Shown here: positions 13,110 to 22,734 of the stretch, one piece after another
Layout of the letters: every line of letters begins with the position of its first letter
Numbering within the stretch: the stretch's first letter is position 1
Origin: Candidatus Heimdallarchaeota archaeon
GTDB taxonomy: Archaea; Asgardarchaeota; Wukongarchaeia; Wukongarchaeales; JBHIFL01
DNA length: 22,734 nt
Assembly: GCA_046761065.1 (NCBI GenBank)
Contig: JBHIFL010000062.1
Location: 1-22,734 of the forward strand
Reading direction: 5' to 3'
Position numbers and translations under genes: made by a program
The notes under the pieces: model-generated
The model's database searches: none
What the model saw: only the letters and a program-made list of their open reading frames with translations
What the model was told of the DNA's origin: nothing

Positions 13110-13271
13110 GGTGTTCTTGCGGCTTCTGCCGACTTTTTGGGAGCGCTCGGGACTGGAACTGGGATACTCCTCACGGTCTCCATACTTAAGCAATATGCTG
13201 AACTTTTAGCCAAGGAACAAGCGGCGGAGATGCACCCAGCAATGCGAGAATTTCTGGGTATTTTAGGATAG
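11859..13271 (+). CDS. secY: Preprotein translocase subunit SecY / Sec61alpha
   Basis: DPFYWVRTIMASSRGTLAELGIGPIVTAGLIMQ, LLDEMVQKGWGLGSGISLFIA, YPIKLLYVSNIPVIL, ADFLGALGTGTGILL; ~10 TM segments; AGGAG SD before the ATG. Confidence 0.98.
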   Translation: MPSTFLRAFKPFMGFVPEVKKPEVEVPFNRKLIYTFLALITYFIMSSITIYGIEIQQGGTDPFYWVRTIMASSRGTLAELGIGPIVTAGLIMQILVGSKIINVDMADPEDRSLYTGVQKVLAVFMTIFEAFAYILGGAYGDLGLNQVVLVLTQLIAAGLVIILLDEMVQKGWGLGSGISLFIAAGVAQQIMWNAFALIQSTTDTFYHGAIVAFLQALFGAGAVRATLIRAAGTPDILGVFATIAVFLIVIYFEAMRIEIPVQYARYRGLRGKYPIKLLYVSNIPVILASAVFADIFFVAKMFHNRWGDNFFVRLLGTFNDKGSPEGGLAYFISPPRGPQEVLAEPLHALIYAAILIILCIGFSKMWLETAGMGPATVAQQLIDAGLQVPAFRRKSKVMEKILARFIPTAAVIGGLFIGVLAASADFLGALGTGTGILLTVSILKQYAELLAKEQAAEMHPAMREFLGILG

Positions 13272-13342
13272 GAGCACGGAGATACGCCTAGAACGGATAT
13301 CAGTACTAAAGAAGAGGAATCTCGCGATTTCAAAAAAAATTC

Positions 13343-13367
13343 AAAAGGAGTCCGCTTTTCCTTTTTT
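13343..13367 (+). terminator. Probable secY terminator (short inverted repeat plus T tracts)
   Basis: AAAAGGA-gtccgcttt-TCCTTTTTT, ~70-95 nt after the stop. Confidence 0.4.
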
Positions 13368-13726
13368 ACATAACAAATACACTTAATTAAGTTCTTTTCA
13401 CTATAAAAAAGGCATCAAATTAATCTATTTGATAGAAGAAGGTGACTTTGTTAAAAATTCGAATTATATGTTTTGAAAGGACAGATTTCGTAAATTAGAG
13501 AAAATTGCTTATACTGTTCGAGTACCCAAGAACCCAAACAAAAGGGAATTGAGATTGGGAAACCAGTTTAAACGATAACAATTCTATAAATTTTAAAAGC
13601 GGATTTTTGAATTCTTAAACCAAATTTTTGTGAGTAATGATATTAAAACTATTATTTCTTAATTTAGGCTGAAAATTTTGTGTTTTTGGTGTAGGATTAA
13701 CAGAGTATGTAGGAGTATTTAAAGTT

Positions 13727-13744
13727 TGTTCCAAAATTGGAACA
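13727..13744. promoter_or_regulatory. Perfect 8-2-8 inverted repeat in the AT-rich intergenic region; candidate protein-binding site
   Basis: TGTTCCAA-AA-TTGGAACA. Confidence 0.4.
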
Positions 13745-13788
13745 TTTGTATTTTAAAATAGCCTTTATATTGAAAAAGAAGCTCAGAC

Positions 13789-13829
13789 GACAAAACTCCA
13801 ACCCCCCATATTTATCCTTGGAGTTTGTC
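13789..13829. repeat. Imperfect inverted repeat just downstream of the LAGLIDADG stop
   Basis: GACAAAACTCCAA ... TTGGAGTTTGTC (one-base bulge, 16-nt loop). Confidence 0.5.
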
Positions 13830-13836
13830 CCGCGAG

Positions 13837-15138
13837 TTATTCAAAGTTTTTAGGTAAAAATGAGTTCCAGTCTTCTAATAAGTTAATTTCTTCTTTTCGG
13901 GTGAGTGGGAGCCATGCTGACTCATAAACAAAGTAGGTACGGAGATAGTCACGGAGGAGTTTGTGTTTAGTATCGTATCCACCATTTGTTCGTGTTAAAC
14001 TTTGAAACCCGAAAAGTTGGTGAACTTTTTCAACTGTTTGTTCAAGGTCGCGATAGTGTCCCCGATGTTTACCAGTTGTCACTGCAATGCCATTTTTGGT
14101 AGGAGACAAGTATTTTAAGAGTATCAGCACTTGTTTTGTGGGTTTCAATGGTAAATGTATGGGATAGCTTGCATGAGGGTAGACAAATTTTGCGTGATGT
14201 GTAATTAAGTAGGGATATGCATCGTCTCCGAACATGGTCAGAAGGTGTAATACTCTTATTCGTTGATCTTTTATTATCACATGAAGCTTAGGAAGTAACG
14301 CGAGGTTCAAATATCCTTTTTCCGTCAAAGAACTCGACTTCACCCCTTTGAATACAGTGACCTTTGTACCTTGCCTTAGTAGATTGAGACATTGTTGTTG
14401 CTTGTTTGGGTGCCACGACCCAACAAGCTGGGAAAAAACCTTGTAGCTGCCAATTTTCAGCTGAATTGTATTACCTTTCTTATAAAAATGCGTATAATAG
14501 TTCAGCTCATGTTGTTCAAGGAAATATTCGAAATCTCGGATTAACTGATCTGAAACCGTACCAAACTGCATGGTTTGACTGTATGAGCCATCGGTATCAA
14601 AGAGCCCCCGCCAATAGAATCGTTCTAGTTTTGAATTTTTCAGAATCAGAGGACAGCGTAATACATGATATTTCTTACCGTATGGCTGGTCTGTTAGCAA
14701 ATTAAGAAGGCGACCTGCCCAGACTGATTTAATAAAGAGAATATACACGCCCCTTGAGCCCCGAACGATTTTGGGGCGCCCTCCAAACAGGGTAGTGGTT
14801 AACTCGAGGAGTTTTCGGATAAATGCAGGATAATTATCTATAATGGAGATATGAGTTCGAGTGAGGCTTCCATCGCCAGCACAAACTCCTAGGAAATAGG
14901 CTAATTTAGGAGATAGATGAATCGGCATACGGAAAGTAATGTGTTTAAAAGACTCCCAAGAAGTGTAAGAAAGCCAAGTTGCTAAAGCCTTCCGTCTGTT
15001 TTGGGTGAGTTCTGCTAACACACGTACAATAACAAAAGGAAGTCTCTTTTGGTGAATGTATTTTCGTAAAATCCTTTCAAAATACGTTGGATCTTTGGGA
15101 TACACATCATCCAAATAGTCTTTGGTCTTTAAAACCAA
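13837..15138 (-). CDS. Free-standing LAGLIDADG endonuclease-family protein (two motifs plus a C-terminal extension)
   Basis: LAYFLGVCAGDGSL and FYWRGLFDTDGSY motifs; no intein splice-junction residues (no N-terminal Cys block, no terminal HN). Confidence 0.88.
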   Translation of the reverse strand: MVLKTKDYLDDVYPKDPTYFERILRKYIHQKRLPFVIVRVLAELTQNRRKALATWLSYTSWESFKHITFRMPIHLSPKLAYFLGVCAGDGSLTRTHISIIDNYPAFIRKLLELTTTLFGGRPKIVRGSRGVYILFIKSVWAGRLLNLLTDQPYGKKYHVLRCPLILKNSKLERFYWRGLFDTDGSYSQTMQFGTVSDQLIRDFEYFLEQHELNYYTHFYKKGNTIQLKIGSYKVFSQLVGSWHPNKQQQCLNLLRQGTKVTVFKGVKSSSLTEKGYLNLALLPKLHVIIKDQRIRVLHLLTMFGDDAYPYLITHHAKFVYPHASYPIHLPLKPTKQVLILLKYLSPTKNGIAVTTGKHRGHYRDLEQTVEKVHQLFGFQSLTRTNGGYDTKHKLLRDYLRTYFVYESAWLPLTRKEEINLLEDWNSFLPKNFE

Positions 15139-15398
15139 TATTCAAATTTTTCTTTGATAAGATCTTTCAAAGGCTTTGTTAAATGAATATAGGGCATTCT
15201 CGCAAAAATCCTATCCCGTTTGGATGTTCTAATGAAATCTATTTTCCTTACAAGGGCCCCATAGAGATTGAATGTGTTGGAAGTGAGATATAGAACATTG
15301 GATGCATTCTTTTCAAGAAGTACATTAGCTGTAATCCAATTATTTGGTCCTACAGGTTTTTGATCTAATAAGAGAGGGTCATTCTGCCACGTTATCAA
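15129..15398 (-). CDS. Small ORF, or frameshifted N-terminus of the LAGLIDADG protein; begins with the 'WxNDPLLLD..WITAN' module
   Basis: GGTGAT SD followed by TTG at 15398; overlaps the LAGLIDADG ORF by 10 nt; coding status supported by a homologous copy at 18964. Confidence 0.7.
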   Translation of the reverse strand: MITWQNDPLLLDQKPVGPNNWITANVLLEKNASNVLYLTSNTFNLYGALVRKIDFIRTSKRDRIFARMPYIHLTKPLKDLIKEKFEYWF

Positions 15399-15519
15399 CG
15401 CTATCACCTATCAAGTACACTGGTAACCATATATAGACCAACAATTAAGAGATATAATCAAAGAATGGGTTACTCTAATAGAATGGTTATTGCATATAGT
15501 AAGTTCCACTAAACGGCGG

Positions 15520-15723
15520 TCAAGAATCGGAAGGGTTCGAGATTGAAGTTCCAGGCTTCAAAATAATTAGTTCTTTCCCATTTCTGAGGATCATTTCTAG
15601 TTCATCTTGTGGCTTAAGATCCCAAGTATCGGCGACCACCTTGGGGATAGTAATCCGGAGTCCTCCACCCCCTGCAGCACTCACTCTATATTTTTTTAAA
15701 CGAATATCTGCGATTTTACTCAC
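15520..15723 (-). CDS. AbrB/MazE/SpoVT-family DNA-binding protein
   Basis: GGGLRITIPKVVADTWDLKPQDELEM...KELIILKP swapped-hairpin signature. Confidence 0.88.
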   Translation of the reverse strand: MSKIADIRLKKYRVSAAGGGGLRITIPKVVADTWDLKPQDELEMILRNGKELIILKPGTSISNPSDS

Positions 15724-16007
15724 CAGCAGGTGATTTTGTGCCTAATTATTTATCCTTTTTTCGACTGATGAAATGACAGATACCTTTTTATATCCTTATT
15801 TATTACTTATTTTATGACTGATATTTTAGGCATTTTGGAAGGTTAGAGTTATGGAGTCAAAATTTGTCACCCAAATTCGAAGATTACACAATTTTAGTCC
15901 TTTTGTTAGTAGATATTCTAGTCATTGGGATAGTATGTTTTATTCAAGATTTTCCAAAGAGTGTAGGGGTTTTTAAGAATAATTAGCTACATAAAGAAGG
16001 ATTCAAG

Positions 16008-18854
16008 ATGAAAGATAAAGAACACGAATTTGCTACCCGAAACAGTCTGGATGAAATTCTTGAACATATTGAAAACGCTATTAAAAATACAAAATTCTCT
16101 TTGCAAGATGTATTAAATGTGACTAGACACTTACTTGTTTGTGAAAATGGGAGCATAAAAGCAAGGGCTCGAGAAACAATTGCACCGGAAGTAAGAAAAT
16201 ACCTTATAGGAGAAAGGAACCTAAGAGCGATTCTTGAAATCCTTCGGAAGGTCAAAATCATCCGAACGGAAGGACATCGGACCATACCATTAGAAAGAGC
16301 TACTGTGTTGCTTGAATATTTACATTCTTTACCTGAAGAGGCGCAGATTAATAAAAATGTCTGGAGTGAGATCGAAAAAGCAGCAAAAAGAGATGGTCAC
16401 AACCCACGAGAAATTTTTGCAGTAGTGAAACATCTGTTTGTACGAAAGGGTGAATTAATTCGTTGTCGTGGAAGAGAGAGAGTTGTAAAAAAGACTGTGG
16501 CCTATAACATAGGTGGCAAAAAACTCCGGAAGTTACTCGCGTACTTAGAACAGGAAGGAATAATTGGAACTAGCGATAAAACCCGTTTTCCTACTGCACG
16601 AGGCGAACAACTCTACCACCAGCTCGAGCAAGGCCAGATCCCTGCAGAATTACCTCCACGCTCAGATCGCTTGACAAAACAAAAAGAGGACTTAAAACAA
16701 AAGATTGCCCAGTATCTTGTAAAATACAAACAACGTTATGGGAAACCCCCCGATGAGGAAACGGCAAAGCAATTTCTTGTTAAGATATGGGACTTACCTA
16801 CTTTTACACGGAAAGATTTAGTTAAAATGTTAACAGAAAAGACGGGGGTTAACCTTAGTGGAGCAAGCTTGTCTAGATACAAACTCGGCCAAAGGGAAAT
16901 GCCGGAACATATTTGCGCTGCACTACACGAGATATCCATAGAGCTGGATGTAGAACGTCTCAAAGAGCGGCAAAAAACTCAACAAGAGCAACTGAAAAAG
17001 CGGGTGGAAACTGCACGAAACGCGTTGCGAGAGCTCTTTGAGAAAGGATTTTCTTTTCCAAAACTCAGTAAACAACTTGAATCGTTGGGTCTGAATATCT
17101 CTGCACCGGTACTAGCTCATATGTCTAGAGGAACCCAAAAGATTCTTTCACAGCATATCCCGCCCATTCTCGAATTACATCATAGAATTAGCACAAAGTA
17201 TCCTGCAATTCCAACAGTTCAAGAGATTGCAGATATGATCAGTATGCTCAATAATATGGGTTATAGTACACTAGAGTTAGCAAGACAAGTCCATAAAAAA
17301 TTACCTCCCCCGAAGAAGAGAGAGATCCAATTCAATGGTGTATCTAAAGCGTTAAGAGAATTCAAGAAAAAACCAGATCGTAAAAAACCTATTCCTCTTT
17401 CTTTTAGGCTTGCGATTAAGCAAGTCTATGATGAATTATTGCTACAACAGAAGGTCGTAATTGACAAACCAATTCAAAAAATTGCTGAAGAGTTACAAAG
17501 CTTTAATTTGCCAATGGATCCCCGGAAAGCCAAGTTCACGGATGCGAAAATTCGAAAAGGGTTGGCTATCGTCCTTATAGCGAAACGGTTGCAAGAGTAT
17601 TTTTATGGAGAATTTCGAGATCGAAGAACTGACCGACCTGATCACTCACGGGTAGTTGCCCCTATTGGCAGCCGACGAATTGCGGCTTTCGCACGGGCCA
17701 AAGGAGTTGACTTAACCTATAACAATATCGAACAGTTCCAACGAATTCTTGAACAAGGAGGTTTTCTTGAACAGGGATGGCTTCCTTCTGGGAAAAAGAA
17801 ATGGTTAGACAGCATAATAACACTTAGTGACTTATTCTGTCTTGAAATCTTTTATCTCTCACGAATTAGAGGCCTAGATTATCTTAATTTTCAAAAACTT
17901 CTTGGCTTACTAAAGCATGTCACGAAGGCGCCTCAGGCGGCGATTGCGGATCTGTTAGGAATTGATAGAAAGACTTTCTATACGGCAATCTCTAATCTCG
18001 AACGCTATCAAGTGGTTACACGAGACGTCATAGGAGACCTTCTTTTAACTCCGAAGGGAGAACTGTTAGCAAATCGCTTACCCCAAGAAATAGACGAAAT
18101 TATAAACTCCAATGCTGATTTAGAAGAGCAATTGGTTTTAATCGGCAAGATAAATAACTATAAGGCGGCTTTGGGTGATATCCTCTTTGAATATATCCTA
18201 GAACGCCTTTTTCCCGATTATCAGATTATAGCCACGGTTCAACCCGTGGGGGAACATGGAATCGATCGGGTTCTCAAAAAAGAAGAAGAGTTAATCGGTG
18301 TAGAATTGAAAGCTCGAATGAAAAGTGACCCTATCTGGCGAACTGAAAAGACATTTCGAATCCTTCTTCGTCATAACTTAGAAATGAAACGTAATTATGG
18401 GAAGTTTCCTCACCATATGTTATTGATAACTACCGCAGATACCTCTGAATACTTTCAAATGATTGCATATCGAGTAAGTAAGCAAATGAAAACCTACCGG
18501 AGTACTCCCATCTTACGATACACTCAGAATCGACTTGCAGATGGGACGCTTCAACTGCGATTTCTCTACGATTTTTCTAAAAAACGATGGATTCGAAGTG
18601 AAGATTCACTGGAAAACACAGACAATAGTGGTATGCGAAATAAAAAGTGGTTCGAAGTTTTCATAATTGGAGATAAACAAATTCGCGAAGTTATAAAAGA
18701 TAATAACCCAGCACAAGAGCTTCTTGCCCTTCTTCAAACATCACGAGAGGAAGTAGTATTGCCAGAATCCCCTGAAGAGACGTTGGATAATTGGAAGAAG
18801 CGAATCATAATTGGAGGTTCACAATCTCTTAGATCAAAGGATTGTTACACATAA
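16008..18854 (+). CDS. 948-aa multi-HTH/wHTH protein with a C-terminal PD-(D/E)xK restriction-endonuclease-like domain
   Basis: Two N-terminal ~90-aa repeats (RHLLVCENGSIKARARE / KHLFVRKGELIRCRGRE), XRE-like helices (LSGASLSRYKLGQREMP; ISAPVLAHMSRG), MarR-like wHTH (QAAIADLLGIDRKTFYTAISNL..LLTPKG), and nuclease motif LGDILFE...GID...GVELK. Confidence 0.8.
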   Translation: MKDKEHEFATRNSLDEILEHIENAIKNTKFSLQDVLNVTRHLLVCENGSIKARARETIAPEVRKYLIGERNLRAILEILRKVKIIRTEGHRTIPLERATVLLEYLHSLPEEAQINKNVWSEIEKAAKRDGHNPREIFAVVKHLFVRKGELIRCRGRERVVKKTVAYNIGGKKLRKLLAYLEQEGIIGTSDKTRFPTARGEQLYHQLEQGQIPAELPPRSDRLTKQKEDLKQKIAQYLVKYKQRYGKPPDEETAKQFLVKIWDLPTFTRKDLVKMLTEKTGVNLSGASLSRYKLGQREMPEHICAALHEISIELDVERLKERQKTQQEQLKKRVETARNALRELFEKGFSFPKLSKQLESLGLNISAPVLAHMSRGTQKILSQHIPPILELHHRISTKYPAIPTVQEIADMISMLNNMGYSTLELARQVHKKLPPPKKREIQFNGVSKALREFKKKPDRKKPIPLSFRLAIKQVYDELLLQQKVVIDKPIQKIAEELQSFNLPMDPRKAKFTDAKIRKGLAIVLIAKRLQEYFYGEFRDRRTDRPDHSRVVAPIGSRRIAAFARAKGVDLTYNNIEQFQRILEQGGFLEQGWLPSGKKKWLDSIITLSDLFCLEIFYLSRIRGLDYLNFQKLLGLLKHVTKAPQAAIADLLGIDRKTFYTAISNLERYQVVTRDVIGDLLLTPKGELLANRLPQEIDEIINSNADLEEQLVLIGKINNYKAALGDILFEYILERLFPDYQIIATVQPVGEHGIDRVLKKEEELIGVELKARMKSDPIWRTEKTFRILLRHNLEMKRNYGKFPHHMLLITTADTSEYFQMIAYRVSKQMKTYRSTPILRYTQNRLADGTLQLRFLYDFSKKRWIRSEDSLENTDNSGMRNKKWFEVFIIGDKQIREVIKDNNPAQELLALLQTSREEVVLPESPEETLDNWKKRIIIGGSQSLRSKDCYT

Positions 18855-18963
18855 TAACATAATCAGGAAAGGATTTTATCTAAGATTTTTACTTCAGTTA
18901 CCAATTGTGAATATTTGGTGGGAATTTTTTAATTTTCGAGACCTACTAATGATGGGTGATGCT

Positions 18964-20370
18964 TTGTTGAGTTGGTACAATGATCCACTTCTCTTAGATG
19001 AACAACCGGTGAATGCCCAATACTGGATTACGGCAAATGACCTGATCATAGAAGGGGCTCAAGATCGCGTGTTTCTCATGCAAAGTGTATGGAATTCGGG
19101 CCAACAATGGATCGTTACCTGGGATGATCGCCTTTGCGAACAATGCCGCCCAATGGCCAACCAAGTCGTCGGCCTCGATCAGCCCTTTATCACTCCCACC
19201 GGGCAACGAATTTTTGTCTGCCAAGAGATCCACTCCAATTGTCGGTGTACGATCGTCCCCGTGCTCCACGAAAATATCGGGAAAAGCCTGAAAGGGTCAC
19301 CCTTTCTGAAAAGTGCCAAGATGCAAGAGGTCGAGGTCAAAGTGGGGCAATTCAGCAAGGCCTTAGCCATAACCGATATCGTGAGTGGCATGTATGAGGG
19401 GGGCATGAACTGTGAGCAGATTGGAAATGCCTTGGGGACTCCCAAACAGACCATCAGCAATTGGCTCAATACTATGGAGATCCCCCCGCGACCAGTTGGG
19501 TTTTTGCAGAAAGAGAAACGAGAGGTTCAGTATGACGACGAAGGGCATCCCGGCTATTGGGTGACTCACAATGGCGTAAAGATATTCATTCGAGAAGGGG
19601 AGTCTATAGAAGATGCATTTAAGCGATGGAAAGGAAAAAAGAAAGACAAGAACAAAGATAAGAGACGGGATGAGAATAAGGGTGACAAAGAAGCCGAGAA
19701 CGAGGCGTATGAGTCATCCATCAAGCTCCCACTGAAAGAAGGCAAGGTTACGGGATTCCCAAAGGATCTGGATAGTGCGCCTACAGAGATCCATCTGAGC
19801 AAAAAGATTCACGAACTTGGGGATAAGGCGGTCGAAAAGACCAAAGAGTCTGGTGAGGAATGGGGCTTTTTCTTGCACTTTAATGAGGCGGGTAGGCTCC
19901 TCCCTGATAAGTTGAAAAGCCCCTCTGAAAAAGCCTCGGGAGGGGAATGGATTATCCTTGCAGAGTATTCAGCAATCAAAAAACAAGATGAATCCATTCA
20001 AGGGATGTTTCATACCCATCCCAAATCCACAACGTTTCCAAGTGGCGAACTCTCCTTTAGCGAAGGGAATTTGGGAACACTTTTGGAAATGGAAGATGCT
20101 CTCCTTCTTTGTAAAGGTCCTCAAGGGGATTATCTACTCGCACTACGAACACAACAAACTCCTTTGGCTCGCAAAGGAATTGGACGTGAAGCAACTCAGC
20201 TCTATAGGGAAATTGCTCGAGACAAGACAATTCTGAATATAAAAAAGGGACTGGAGCGGAAAACCGCAGTTATTAAAGCCGTATTTGAGACCATGGTAGA
20301 AATATGCAAAAAGTATAATATTGCTTTATACAAAGGAGAAGTGGGGAAACCGGCCAAGAAGGTGATTTAG
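18964..20370 (+). CDS. Phage head-morphogenesis (MuF/SPP1 gp7-like) C-terminal half fused to an HTH, a 'WVTxNG' motif and a JAB/MPN-like domain
   Basis: WIVTWDDRLCEQC...IHSNCRCTIVP (MuF Cys/His motifs); MNCEQIGNALGTPKQTISNWL (HTH); GYWVTHNGVKIFIREGES; EEWGF...FHTHP...SFSEGNL. Start moved to TTG 18964 on the basis of the GGTGAT SD and homology with 15398. Confidence 0.8.
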   Translation: MLSWYNDPLLLDEQPVNAQYWITANDLIIEGAQDRVFLMQSVWNSGQQWIVTWDDRLCEQCRPMANQVVGLDQPFITPTGQRIFVCQEIHSNCRCTIVPVLHENIGKSLKGSPFLKSAKMQEVEVKVGQFSKALAITDIVSGMYEGGMNCEQIGNALGTPKQTISNWLNTMEIPPRPVGFLQKEKREVQYDDEGHPGYWVTHNGVKIFIREGESIEDAFKRWKGKKKDKNKDKRRDENKGDKEAENEAYESSIKLPLKEGKVTGFPKDLDSAPTEIHLSKKIHELGDKAVEKTKESGEEWGFFLHFNEAGRLLPDKLKSPSEKASGGEWIILAEYSAIKKQDESIQGMFHTHPKSTTFPSGELSFSEGNLGTLLEMEDALLLCKGPQGDYLLALRTQQTPLARKGIGREATQLYREIARDKTILNIKKGLERKTAVIKAVFETMVEICKKYNIALYKGEVGKPAKKVI

Positions 20371-20529: not shown

Positions 20530-20633
20530 TTTTCCTTGCAATTCTTATTCTTGTCAAATAATGGTTCTCCAGCCGTTTTGACAAATCGCTTTTATGTTTC
20601 TAAATGACATATACAAGGGAGTGTGAGGTTTCT

Positions 20634-21005
20634 ATGAGTGTAGAAACCGAGAGCGAGACAATCCTGCTCCATGTCGAATTTAACAAGGGACTAGGGAATC
20701 CACTGTGCATCCCTTTTGCGAAAGACGCCATCGACACTGAGAAGCGAATGATCCGTGGGTATGCCTCCACGGAAGCCTTAGATCGTGAGGGCTAGATCAG
20801 CTCCAAGGCTGCGGTGGCTGAAGCACTAGTCGAGTATCTCCAGGTAAATCCGACGATCCGCGCCAAACACAGGCCGCCACCGATTGGCAAGGCGATCAAA
20901 GAACTGACCAAGATGGACAAGGTCGGCCTGTACGTCTATGCAAATATCTTCAAAGACTACCAAGCGGCCGATGACGCATGGTCCGTGATCAACCAAGGCG
21001 ATAGT
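20634..21005 (+). pseudogene. HK97-type prohead (maturation) protease, interrupted and truncated
   Basis: RMIRGYASTEALDREG*I...NPTIRAKH..PIGK...DKVGLYVYANI...AWSVINQG; TAG at 20793 joins the two track ORFs in one frame; similarity ends before the catalytic GxSIG serine motif. Confidence 0.85.
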
Positions 21006-21682
21006 ACACGTTTTTTTCAGTCCTTAGATACTCCACATAACTTTCCCATGTTCGTCCCTTTTTACCCATCTTTTCTTTTTCTTTGAGGACTTTATTAATT
21101 GAGTTCATAAGGTTCTTTAGATGTTCAGCCACTATCTGTACTTTTTCTTCCATTTTTATTCACTGTAGAAAAAAGAAGGAAGATATGTATTTAGACTTGC
21201 TCCGTGAAAGAGCCGTAAATGGTGGAGCAGATTGCTCCCAAGGAAACTCGTTTATTTTATCTTTAAATTGCTATTTTGCTTGATTTTAGATTTTCATGGT
21301 AGTGTCTCTTTTTCCCCAAGGATCCCAACCCACCGTTTCAACACATGATAGGGATACGTTAAAAATTGGCGGTGGGTTGTTCGCTGGGGGAAACTGGAAG
21401 GGGGATTGTCTCAACCGCCGATCTCTCTCAAGATCCTTCAGGTATGGTATCAAATTTGCGATTTTTCAACGAAGGTTCACCTAGGTGAAAGGGAGTTATC
21501 ACCCTCCCAAAGAGGAACGCCATAATTTCAGAAATGCCCCCCGTTCGTAGAACGTCTCGAACAACTCATAGATACGAGTATTGACATAATCTGGTTGTTT
21601 GATGCTTATCAAATGCTCTGTATTGAGTAATTTATCCCGCAATTGGGATGACGGCCTGAGTGATGGACGTTTAGACTTTGTA

Positions 21683-22207
21683 CTATTGAGTTTCTAAATG
21701 CTTTCTGGCTTCCTGCATAAGAATCCTGTGCACAGGGGCAGTGATCCAGAAGCCGGCTCTTGCAAGTTCAGTAAGGAGCAAATCGAGCTCTTCAAGCGAA
21801 ATCAGTTTCTTATAAGCCATCTTCAAGAGAAGGGCGGGTGTTCGTAACGGGGAGAAGTCTAGGGCTTTGGCGGCATTGTAGGCAATCTGGTCATCCACAA
21901 GAACATATTCACTGGATTCTTGTTTAGCTAGGGCCAACATGCTTGCTTCTCCTTTATGAAGCCCTTTTGTTGCTAAAACCTTTTCTCTCCATGCTTGCGC
22001 CTCTGTCTTTAGCTGGACAACATTTAATAACCCTCCCACTTCCTCCTCAATGCCTATGACTTCTGAATGTCCCAACTCTTTTCCTCGAAGAATCTCCTCT
22101 AACACCTCGGAAGCAATCAAAATGCTAGAGAATAGCTTGCGCAATAGTTTTAGTTTGGGAAGTTGGGCTAGGTAGATCAATGGAGACGCATTACTTACAC
22201 TGACCAA
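21683..22207 (-). CDS. DUF3368-family PIN-domain toxin; start TTG 22207 rather than 22336
   Basis: VSNASPLIYL...VLEE...LHKGEASMLALA...VLVDDQIA...AGFWI. Confidence 0.88.
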   Translation of the reverse strand: MVSVSNASPLIYLAQLPKLKLLRKLFSSILIASEVLEEILRGKELGHSEVIGIEEEVGGLLNVVQLKTEAQAWREKVLATKGLHKGEASMLALAKQESSEYVLVDDQIAYNAAKALDFSPLRTPALLLKMAYKKLISLEELDLLLTELARAGFWITAPVHRILMQEARKHLETQ

Positions 22208-22209
22208 AG

Positions 22210-22512
22210 CTAACCACCGAAAATCGCCCGAAGATCCTCTCGGGCCTCTTCTTCGGTGTAGACGACAATCCGTCGCTGCCTGATCTCCTCGATCATTTCC
22301 CAAAGGGACCGATCCGCGATCTCTGCCGCTTTCCACAAGGTGATTTTTCGTTTTGCATATAAATTAAGAGCTTTTTCGAGGGTTTTCACGGATAACCCGA
22401 TCTCAATTAGCTTACGAATTGCTGTTGATCGATCTGTTTGCTCTTCCTGTGCAATTTTATCAATTTCTGCGGCAGTCTTGGGATCTGTCCGTGTGGTCAA
22501 TGTAACCGACAT
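22210..22512 (-). CDS. UPF0175-family antitoxin with an N-terminal RHH; start ATG 22512
   Basis: GGTGA SD; IDKIAQEEQTDRSTAIRKL (RHH), ALNLYAKRKITLWKAAEIADRSLWEMIEE (UPF0175); coupled to the PIN gene. Confidence 0.88.
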   Translation of the reverse strand: MSVTLTTRTDPKTAAEIDKIAQEEQTDRSTAIRKLIEIGLSVKTLEKALNLYAKRKITLWKAAEIADRSLWEMIEEIRQRRIVVYTEEEAREDLRAIFGG

Positions 22513-22734
22513 GTCTTTCACCTGATACATTTGATGCAATTCGATACAAACTAAAAAAAAGATTCTCATTCATGCTAAAGATTCTACAGTAGCTGACAAG
22601 TAAAAATCCATACAACTTGGCGTGGGAATTGTAAGTTTAATATTACCCTTCGTGGGTGAAGGTAATACTGATACGATTCGTACACTTCTAGGGATTGGAG
22701 TATTCTGTTTAGCCGTAGCGGGAATAAACAGCCT

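Follow-up and report, generated by a model that had tools for sequence, protein, structure and literature searches.

The N-terminus shared by a LAGLIDADG nuclease and a MuF-type protein in an Asgard archaeon is probably a recombination scar

We analyzed a window of 22,734 nt, positions 1–22,734 of contig JBHIFL010000062.1 (Candidatus Heimdallarchaeota archaeon, assembly GCA_046761065.1), in which two otherwise unrelated proteins begin with a similar stretch of amino acids. A first-pass annotation had offered two readings of this stretch: a targeting, packaging or interaction tag shared by effectors of one element, or the N-terminus of a second LAGLIDADG paralog in which a viral fragment had replaced the body. 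Our results support the latter, and the viral fragment is the tail of a portal-MuF gene from about codon 808. Sequence comparisons identify the shared 45–50 residues as the normal N-terminus of an Asgard-restricted, multi-copy family of ~540-aa free-standing nucleases with two LAGLIDADG motifs (LAG family). Its occurrence on the MuF tail is probably a scar left by recombination within a mobile cassette prone to rearrangement, rather than a targeting tag that the two proteins have in common.

Two N-terminal stretches in one window

The features of the window that bear on the fusion are listed below by position and strand.

13272..13836, no strand: AT-rich non-coding spacer at the left edge of a low-GC island (composition profile, GC ~0.27–0.30)
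13837..15407, minus: LAG-A, belonging to the ~540-aa double-motif LAGLIDADG family; a 1-base frameshift near 15140 separates its 92-aa and 433-aa ORFs
15258..15407, minus: copy A, the native N-terminus of LAG-A, with all family-invariant residues present (W, DP, D, W, N)
15520..15723, minus: AbrB/MazE-type small DNA-binding protein directly upstream of LAG-A (Pfam MazE_antitoxin, E 6e-8)
16008..18854, plus: 948-aa protein divergent from AbrB and LAG-A, with copy B next on the same strand; sub-threshold matches to HTH families
18949..19098, plus: copy B, a 5' fragment (~50 codons) of a second, divergent LAG-family gene and now the start of a chimeric ORF (HMM and alignment)
19090..19100, plus: fusion junction of the LAG fragment and the viral remnant (homology onset, GC step and bridging contigs)
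19099..20370, plus: tail of a viral portal-MuF gene, with the second half of MuF, an HTH region, a Lys-rich linker and a JAB-like C-terminal domain

Both N-terminal stretches lay where they had been placed, and BLASTP aligned the 92-aa ORF (15132–15407, minus strand) with the 519-aa frame (18811–20367, plus strand) without gaps at 21 identities in 45 residues (E 4e-13). In the core of the two copies, 15 of 22 residues are identical and 8 of these 15 are encoded by different codons, exactly as counted before. The corresponding DNA identity is 44 of 66 nt in the core and 74 of 135 nt over 45 codons, with the similarity setting in ~10–12 nt ahead of the start codons and ending at about codon 47–50. 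Both copies read outward from the AbrB/948-aa pair, in agreement with the orientation originally described. The synonymous codons had been taken to imply old divergence under protein-level selection; the old divergence stands, as one between two LAGLIDADG paralogs, but the codon differences do not demonstrate selection on the stretch where it is joined to MuF.

The leaders in front of the two reading frames had also been noted to match. The match is present (GGTGAT), but it is probably coding sequence inside the same duplicated piece, given starts further upstream. Because LAG family members begin 6–8 residues ahead of a conserved Trp, the likelier starts, as judged from the family alignment, are GTG 15407 for copy A and ATG 18949/18952 for copy B.

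What had been described as a LAGLIDADG unit retains that identity (Pfam LAGLIDADG_3, E 5e-6) but proved to be a single gene broken by a frameshift, the family HMM spanning positions 7–88 in the 92-aa ORF and 96–527 in the 433-aa ORF. A sister-strain contig from one of four vent samples (run X4) carries one extra base after 15140 compared with the window, and adding this base to LAG-A in silico gave a single 523-aa frame matching HMM positions 7–527. The break is therefore a strain-level polymorphism or an assembly error. Short two-allele bubbles were seen in the run contigs at 14937–15055, 15408–15522 and 18253–18374.

The window cassette thus has LAG-A and the AbrB gene on one strand and the 948-aa gene and the LAG-B fragment on the other. 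AbrB-like ORFs occupy the same position in some relatives, and no pairwise similarity was found between the AbrB protein and these AbrB-like neighbours of LAG genes. The nuclease reading of the 948-aa protein could not be confirmed, its matches being limited to weak, sub-threshold HTH families; no similarity was detected to the NERD or multi-HTH proteins that neighbour LAG genes in relatives. The low-GC island extends from ~13300 to the fusion junction, and its left-edge spacer contains no ORF of at least 40 aa. At the 3' end of secY (13219–13262), a sole 44-nt piece recurred in short contigs of all four runs with 4 mismatches and different flanks, which may represent conserved secY ends of other organisms.

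The LAGLIDADG family behind the stretch

When 400 genomes of the phylum were scanned with a profile of the stretch, 13 contained it, with 84 matches in total. Almost all of these lay in frames of 520–570 aa, and the highest number in a single genome, reached in one genus, was 17. The body behind the stretch was LAGLIDADG in all of the 26 sampled cases, and a MuF/JAB body was found in the window only. The same genome also encodes an intact 540-aa paralog (contig C17) in which the stretch is followed by a LAGLIDADG body. In the profile scan of the 400 genomes, LAG genes were multi-copy and frequently decayed. The intact paralog on C17 (L052, G000) forms a row of genes on one strand together with those for an AbrEii-type nucleotidyltransferase, two small proteins, of which one has a MarR-like HTH, a multi-HTH protein of 843 aa and a DEAD-box helicase.

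A wider profile search with a tabulation of downstream domains had been proposed as a check. A profile built from 28 sequences matched 54 clusters among 1.84 billion representative proteins, always N-terminally within roughly the first 100 residues, and all hits of 518–565 aa matched the LAGLIDADG family over their full length. A word-index search with residues 1–50 of copy B returned that protein alone, and PHROGs gave nothing for the LAG proteins. It had been stated beforehand that a stretch confined to LAGLIDADG proteins, together with a MuF fusion unique to this genome, would speak for a scar rather than a tag, and this is essentially what we observed.

The family has two LAGLIDADG motifs, each with a conserved acidic residue, in which G182, G186, D187 and G188 and G274, D277, D279 and G280 are invariant in the 28-sequence alignment. 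A conserved domain of ~165 residues opens these proteins, and the stretch forms its first third; invariant residues also occur beyond the stretch (R55, D58, F59, R67 and P73). Structure prediction had also been suggested, and an AF2 model of a family protein (pLDDT 90.3) presented residues 10–165 as a single confident region (pLDDT 90–98). Residues 1–60 were modeled mostly as coil with short helices, at a pLDDT of 90–95 in the full protein and 74–88 in the isolated N-domain. The paired α-β-β-α-β-β-α core of LAGLIDADG nucleases was found at model residues ~172–357, which aligned structurally with I-DmoI, I-Tsp061I and PI-PfuI at Z 16–18 over 160–180 residues.

For the isolated N-terminal domain, fold searches gave a best Z of 5.0 and no Foldseek match at E ≤ 0.001, and an Atlas search gave sub-threshold leads only (score 0.81). 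Some structural alignments with intein endonucleases start at model residue ~39; Pfam Hint and Intein_splicing gave no match in the LAG family.

Besides the window protein, two further chimeras were detected; they break at residues 58 and 118, and each forms a cluster of one. In P0011/P0059 (P0059 = NHK32624.1), 58 family residues are followed by a 375-residue orphan body that is absent from the 400 genomes of the phylum. In P0008, 118 family residues precede a body with homology to the product of a ~210-aa gene found beside LAG genes in a relative. Singleton chimeras that break at different residues fit scars and do not fit a module of constant extent.

A self-contained tag that the element attaches to the N-termini of different effectors for targeting, packaging or interaction should be found on unrelated bodies in several separate lineages, each time with its boundary at the same residue. 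The breakpoints observed here were 50, 58 and 118, each chimera is a singleton, and all full-length hits among the 1.84 billion representatives have LAGLIDADG bodies. Furthermore, copy B is broken inside the conserved domain, with R55, D58, F59, R67 and P73 lost just past the break, and its viral partner is a truncated gene. These observations leave the tag very unlikely, although three others count for it and against a scar. Copy B keeps all invariant and near-invariant residues of positions 1–50 despite an identity of ~40–47% to any known copy; the chimeric ORF runs uninterrupted for 468 aa, in contrast to ORF 20604–21086 downstream with its in-frame stop; and two of the three chimeras break close together, P0059 just 8 residues later than copy B.

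The truncated viral gene and its junction

The body of copy B descends from the MuF family. It is 60–64% identical to P0055 and P0060 over 177–193 residues and has PHROG head-morphogenesis matches. P0060, encoded on a 16.5-kb Logan contig, is a 1344-aa protein with Phage_portal at 124–497 and a full Phage_Mu_F at 746–859, and P0055 is a 412-aa partial protein from a short contig that falls in the same 90% cluster. Homology to both begins abruptly at copy B residue 51 (GQQW), corresponding to window position 19099 and P0060 residue 808. From there, copy B residues 51–226 and P0060 residues 808–983 are 64% identical over 177 residues, and the C-terminal domains differ beyond.

While P0055 and P0060 have Phage_Mu_F profile positions 2–111, copy B has positions 65–111 only and scores 20.1 bits against a Pfam cut-off of 29.6, so that it does not qualify as a complete domain. 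The module had been said to replace a missing N-terminal half of the MuF domain; this is correct for MuF positions 1–64, and the portal is gone as well. On the LAG side, copy B matches the family HMM at profile positions 7–48 only, and the alignment shows its invariant residues retained. The GC content of this stretch (18949..19098) is 0.44, and across the junction it rises in 200-nt windows from 0.33–0.41 to 0.52–0.54. Given the onset of viral homology at residue 51 and the GC step there, ~50 LAGLIDADG codons stand in for ~807 residues comprising the portal and the first half of MuF.

We also considered the reverse origin, in which the stretch originated in viral portal-MuF proteins, from which the LAGLIDADG family would have captured it. 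The co-occurrence of the two in the window is all that speaks for it; the closest viral relatives (P0055, P0060 and P0056) have an ordinary MuF at this place without the stretch, and all other carriers are LAGLIDADG proteins, making this origin barely credible.

The JAB assignment of the C-terminus was weak (Pfam Prok-JAB, E 0.032). This JAB-like half (19660–20370) is 41–42% identical to a stand-alone 233-aa paralog on contig C115 of the same genome (G000), which adjoins an AbrB/PIN-like pair; a further copy on contig C5 contains four stops. The relatives P0060 and P0056 (810 aa) are single polypeptides composed of portal, MuF, HTH region and a variable C-terminal domain.

Starting ~230 nt downstream of the chimera, ORF 20604–21086 has an in-frame stop at 20793–20795, and stops are abundant beyond 21086; the viral remnant therefore seems short and decayed. 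A prohead protease reading of this ORF was confirmed by neither Pfam nor PHROGs. Further on, 21683–22569 encodes a UPF0175/RHH-type small protein (E 5e-11) adjoining a 217-aa protein with a weak match to DUF3368 (PIN-like), probably a toxin-antitoxin pair.

The junction is physically real in the sequenced population: Logan contigs of four samples (runs) bridge 19090–19100 without alternative joints at either copy, all of them from one study of one vent system. The chimera cluster has three near-identical members, found in this vent population only. That the genome is a metagenome bin of 234 contigs and that the LAG family is repeated in it could have favoured an assembly artefact, or else the inverted copies might drive a programmed inversion switch. 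Either is highly improbable, as contigs of all four samples run through the junction, the copies are only ~55–67% identical in DNA with a longest inverted match of 16 nt, and no recombinase gene lies nearby.

We therefore return to the recombination scar. The window holds two LAG-family pieces, the nearly intact LAG-A and, downstream of the 948-aa gene, only the 5' end of a second, divergent member. In the simplest case a deletion, or else some other rearrangement, would have fused this second gene at codon ~50 to a portal-MuF gene at about codon 808, with the reading frame preserved, and the same event would have removed the portal, the first half of MuF and the rest of the second LAGLIDADG gene. 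The outcome would be the chimeric ORF of 468–473 aa, which takes its start codon and its first 50 residues from the nuclease gene. Since in a relative a LAG gene follows that of a large NERD protein in the same direction (locus L046), an earlier state with a complete LAG-B gene behind the 948-aa gene is plausible. Neither the donor gene nor the pre-fusion arrangement of copy B was found. We infer this order of events, and on the MuF remnant the stretch presumably does nothing of its own except provide a start.

Cassettes in relatives and known systems

In a relative genome with 17 LAG copies, the LAG genes are arranged head-to-head with TnpB (10), a RAMP pair (4) or a NERD-domain protein (3). 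The facing TnpB proteins matched Cas12f1-like_TNB and OrfB_IS605, and helicase and large HTH proteins were also found near LAG genes in relatives, while the large downstream proteins gave no Cas1 Pfam match. A conserved intergenic region of ~170 bp lies between LAG and the facing gene at loci L042–L067 (G085 and relatives). Within the genome with 17 copies, pairwise DNA homology blocks between LAG copies frequently have one of their ends in the interval from −180 to +55 relative to the LAG start, which indicates module swapping.

These block ends, at which the facing gene is exchanged in that one genome, and the three chimeras breaking within the first 120 codons could suggest that the 5' region of LAG genes is a preferred recombination junction of mobile cassettes, perhaps through a nearby cut by a cassette nuclease. 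On this view, in-frame fusions would arise repeatedly as a by-product or would serve to put foreign genes under nuclease-gene expression signals. We consider this quite unlikely. The chimeras break at +150, +174 and +354 nt, at places other than the mosaic junctions, and there is no known cleavage site. Moreover, a chimera without the stretch escapes the search and one with a long LAG part is hidden by clustering, so that the 5' bias may be one of ascertainment. It is likewise an unlikely idea, if a little less so, that the first ~50–120 codons of the LAGLIDADG hub gene form a recombination hot zone, possibly made by a cassette nuclease, that repeatedly yields in-frame fusions under the start signals of the hub gene; if true, it would be a route to new chimeric genes, here with a viral effector tail, beyond mere decay.

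Reading copy B as a recombination scar removes the tempting notion of an undiscovered targeting tag common to effectors and leaves a precisely mapped fusion of a nuclease gene with a truncated portal-MuF gene. The analysis also defined a little-described Asgard-restricted LAGLIDADG family having a conserved N-terminal domain without a known fold, and gave evidence of LAG cassettes rearranging around the 5' end of the gene. With the portal and half of MuF missing, caution is warranted in regarding the copy B protein as a polymorphic MuF effector.

Compared with SPP1 gp7-type and Phage Mu F minor head proteins and their portal-MuF fusions, the relatives of copy B vary in their C-terminal domain as polymorphic MuF effectors do. 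Copy B itself differs from Phage Mu F and SPP1 gp7-type proteins in having neither the portal nor MuF positions 1–64, in scoring below the Pfam cut-off and in having no other recognised head genes adjoining.

The LAG family shares with I-DmoI, I-Tsp061I and the PI-PfuI endonuclease domain the same two motifs with acidic residues and a core superposing at an rmsd of ~2 Å, and its genes are multi-copy and often decayed, as selfish nuclease genes would be expected to be. In contrast to I-DmoI-type enzymes, its members are ~540 aa long, with an N-domain of ~165 residues without structural match and a C-terminal extension of ~180 residues, and unlike I-DmoI-type homing endonucleases they are found outside introns and inteins, heading variable gene cassettes.

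The aCas1-TnpB loci of Asgard archaea were described by Altae-Tran et al. 2023 (PMC10691335), where a LAGLIDADG partner is unmentioned. In the relatives studied here, cassettes resembling this type have a ~540-aa LAGLIDADG gene facing a swappable TnpB, RAMP pair or NERD protein. The window, by comparison, holds a partial cassette without a TnpB, Cas1-like or helicase gene, in which, unlike in the relatives' LAG cassettes, the facing gene encodes the 948-aa protein without detectable similarity and one LAG copy is cut to 50 codons.
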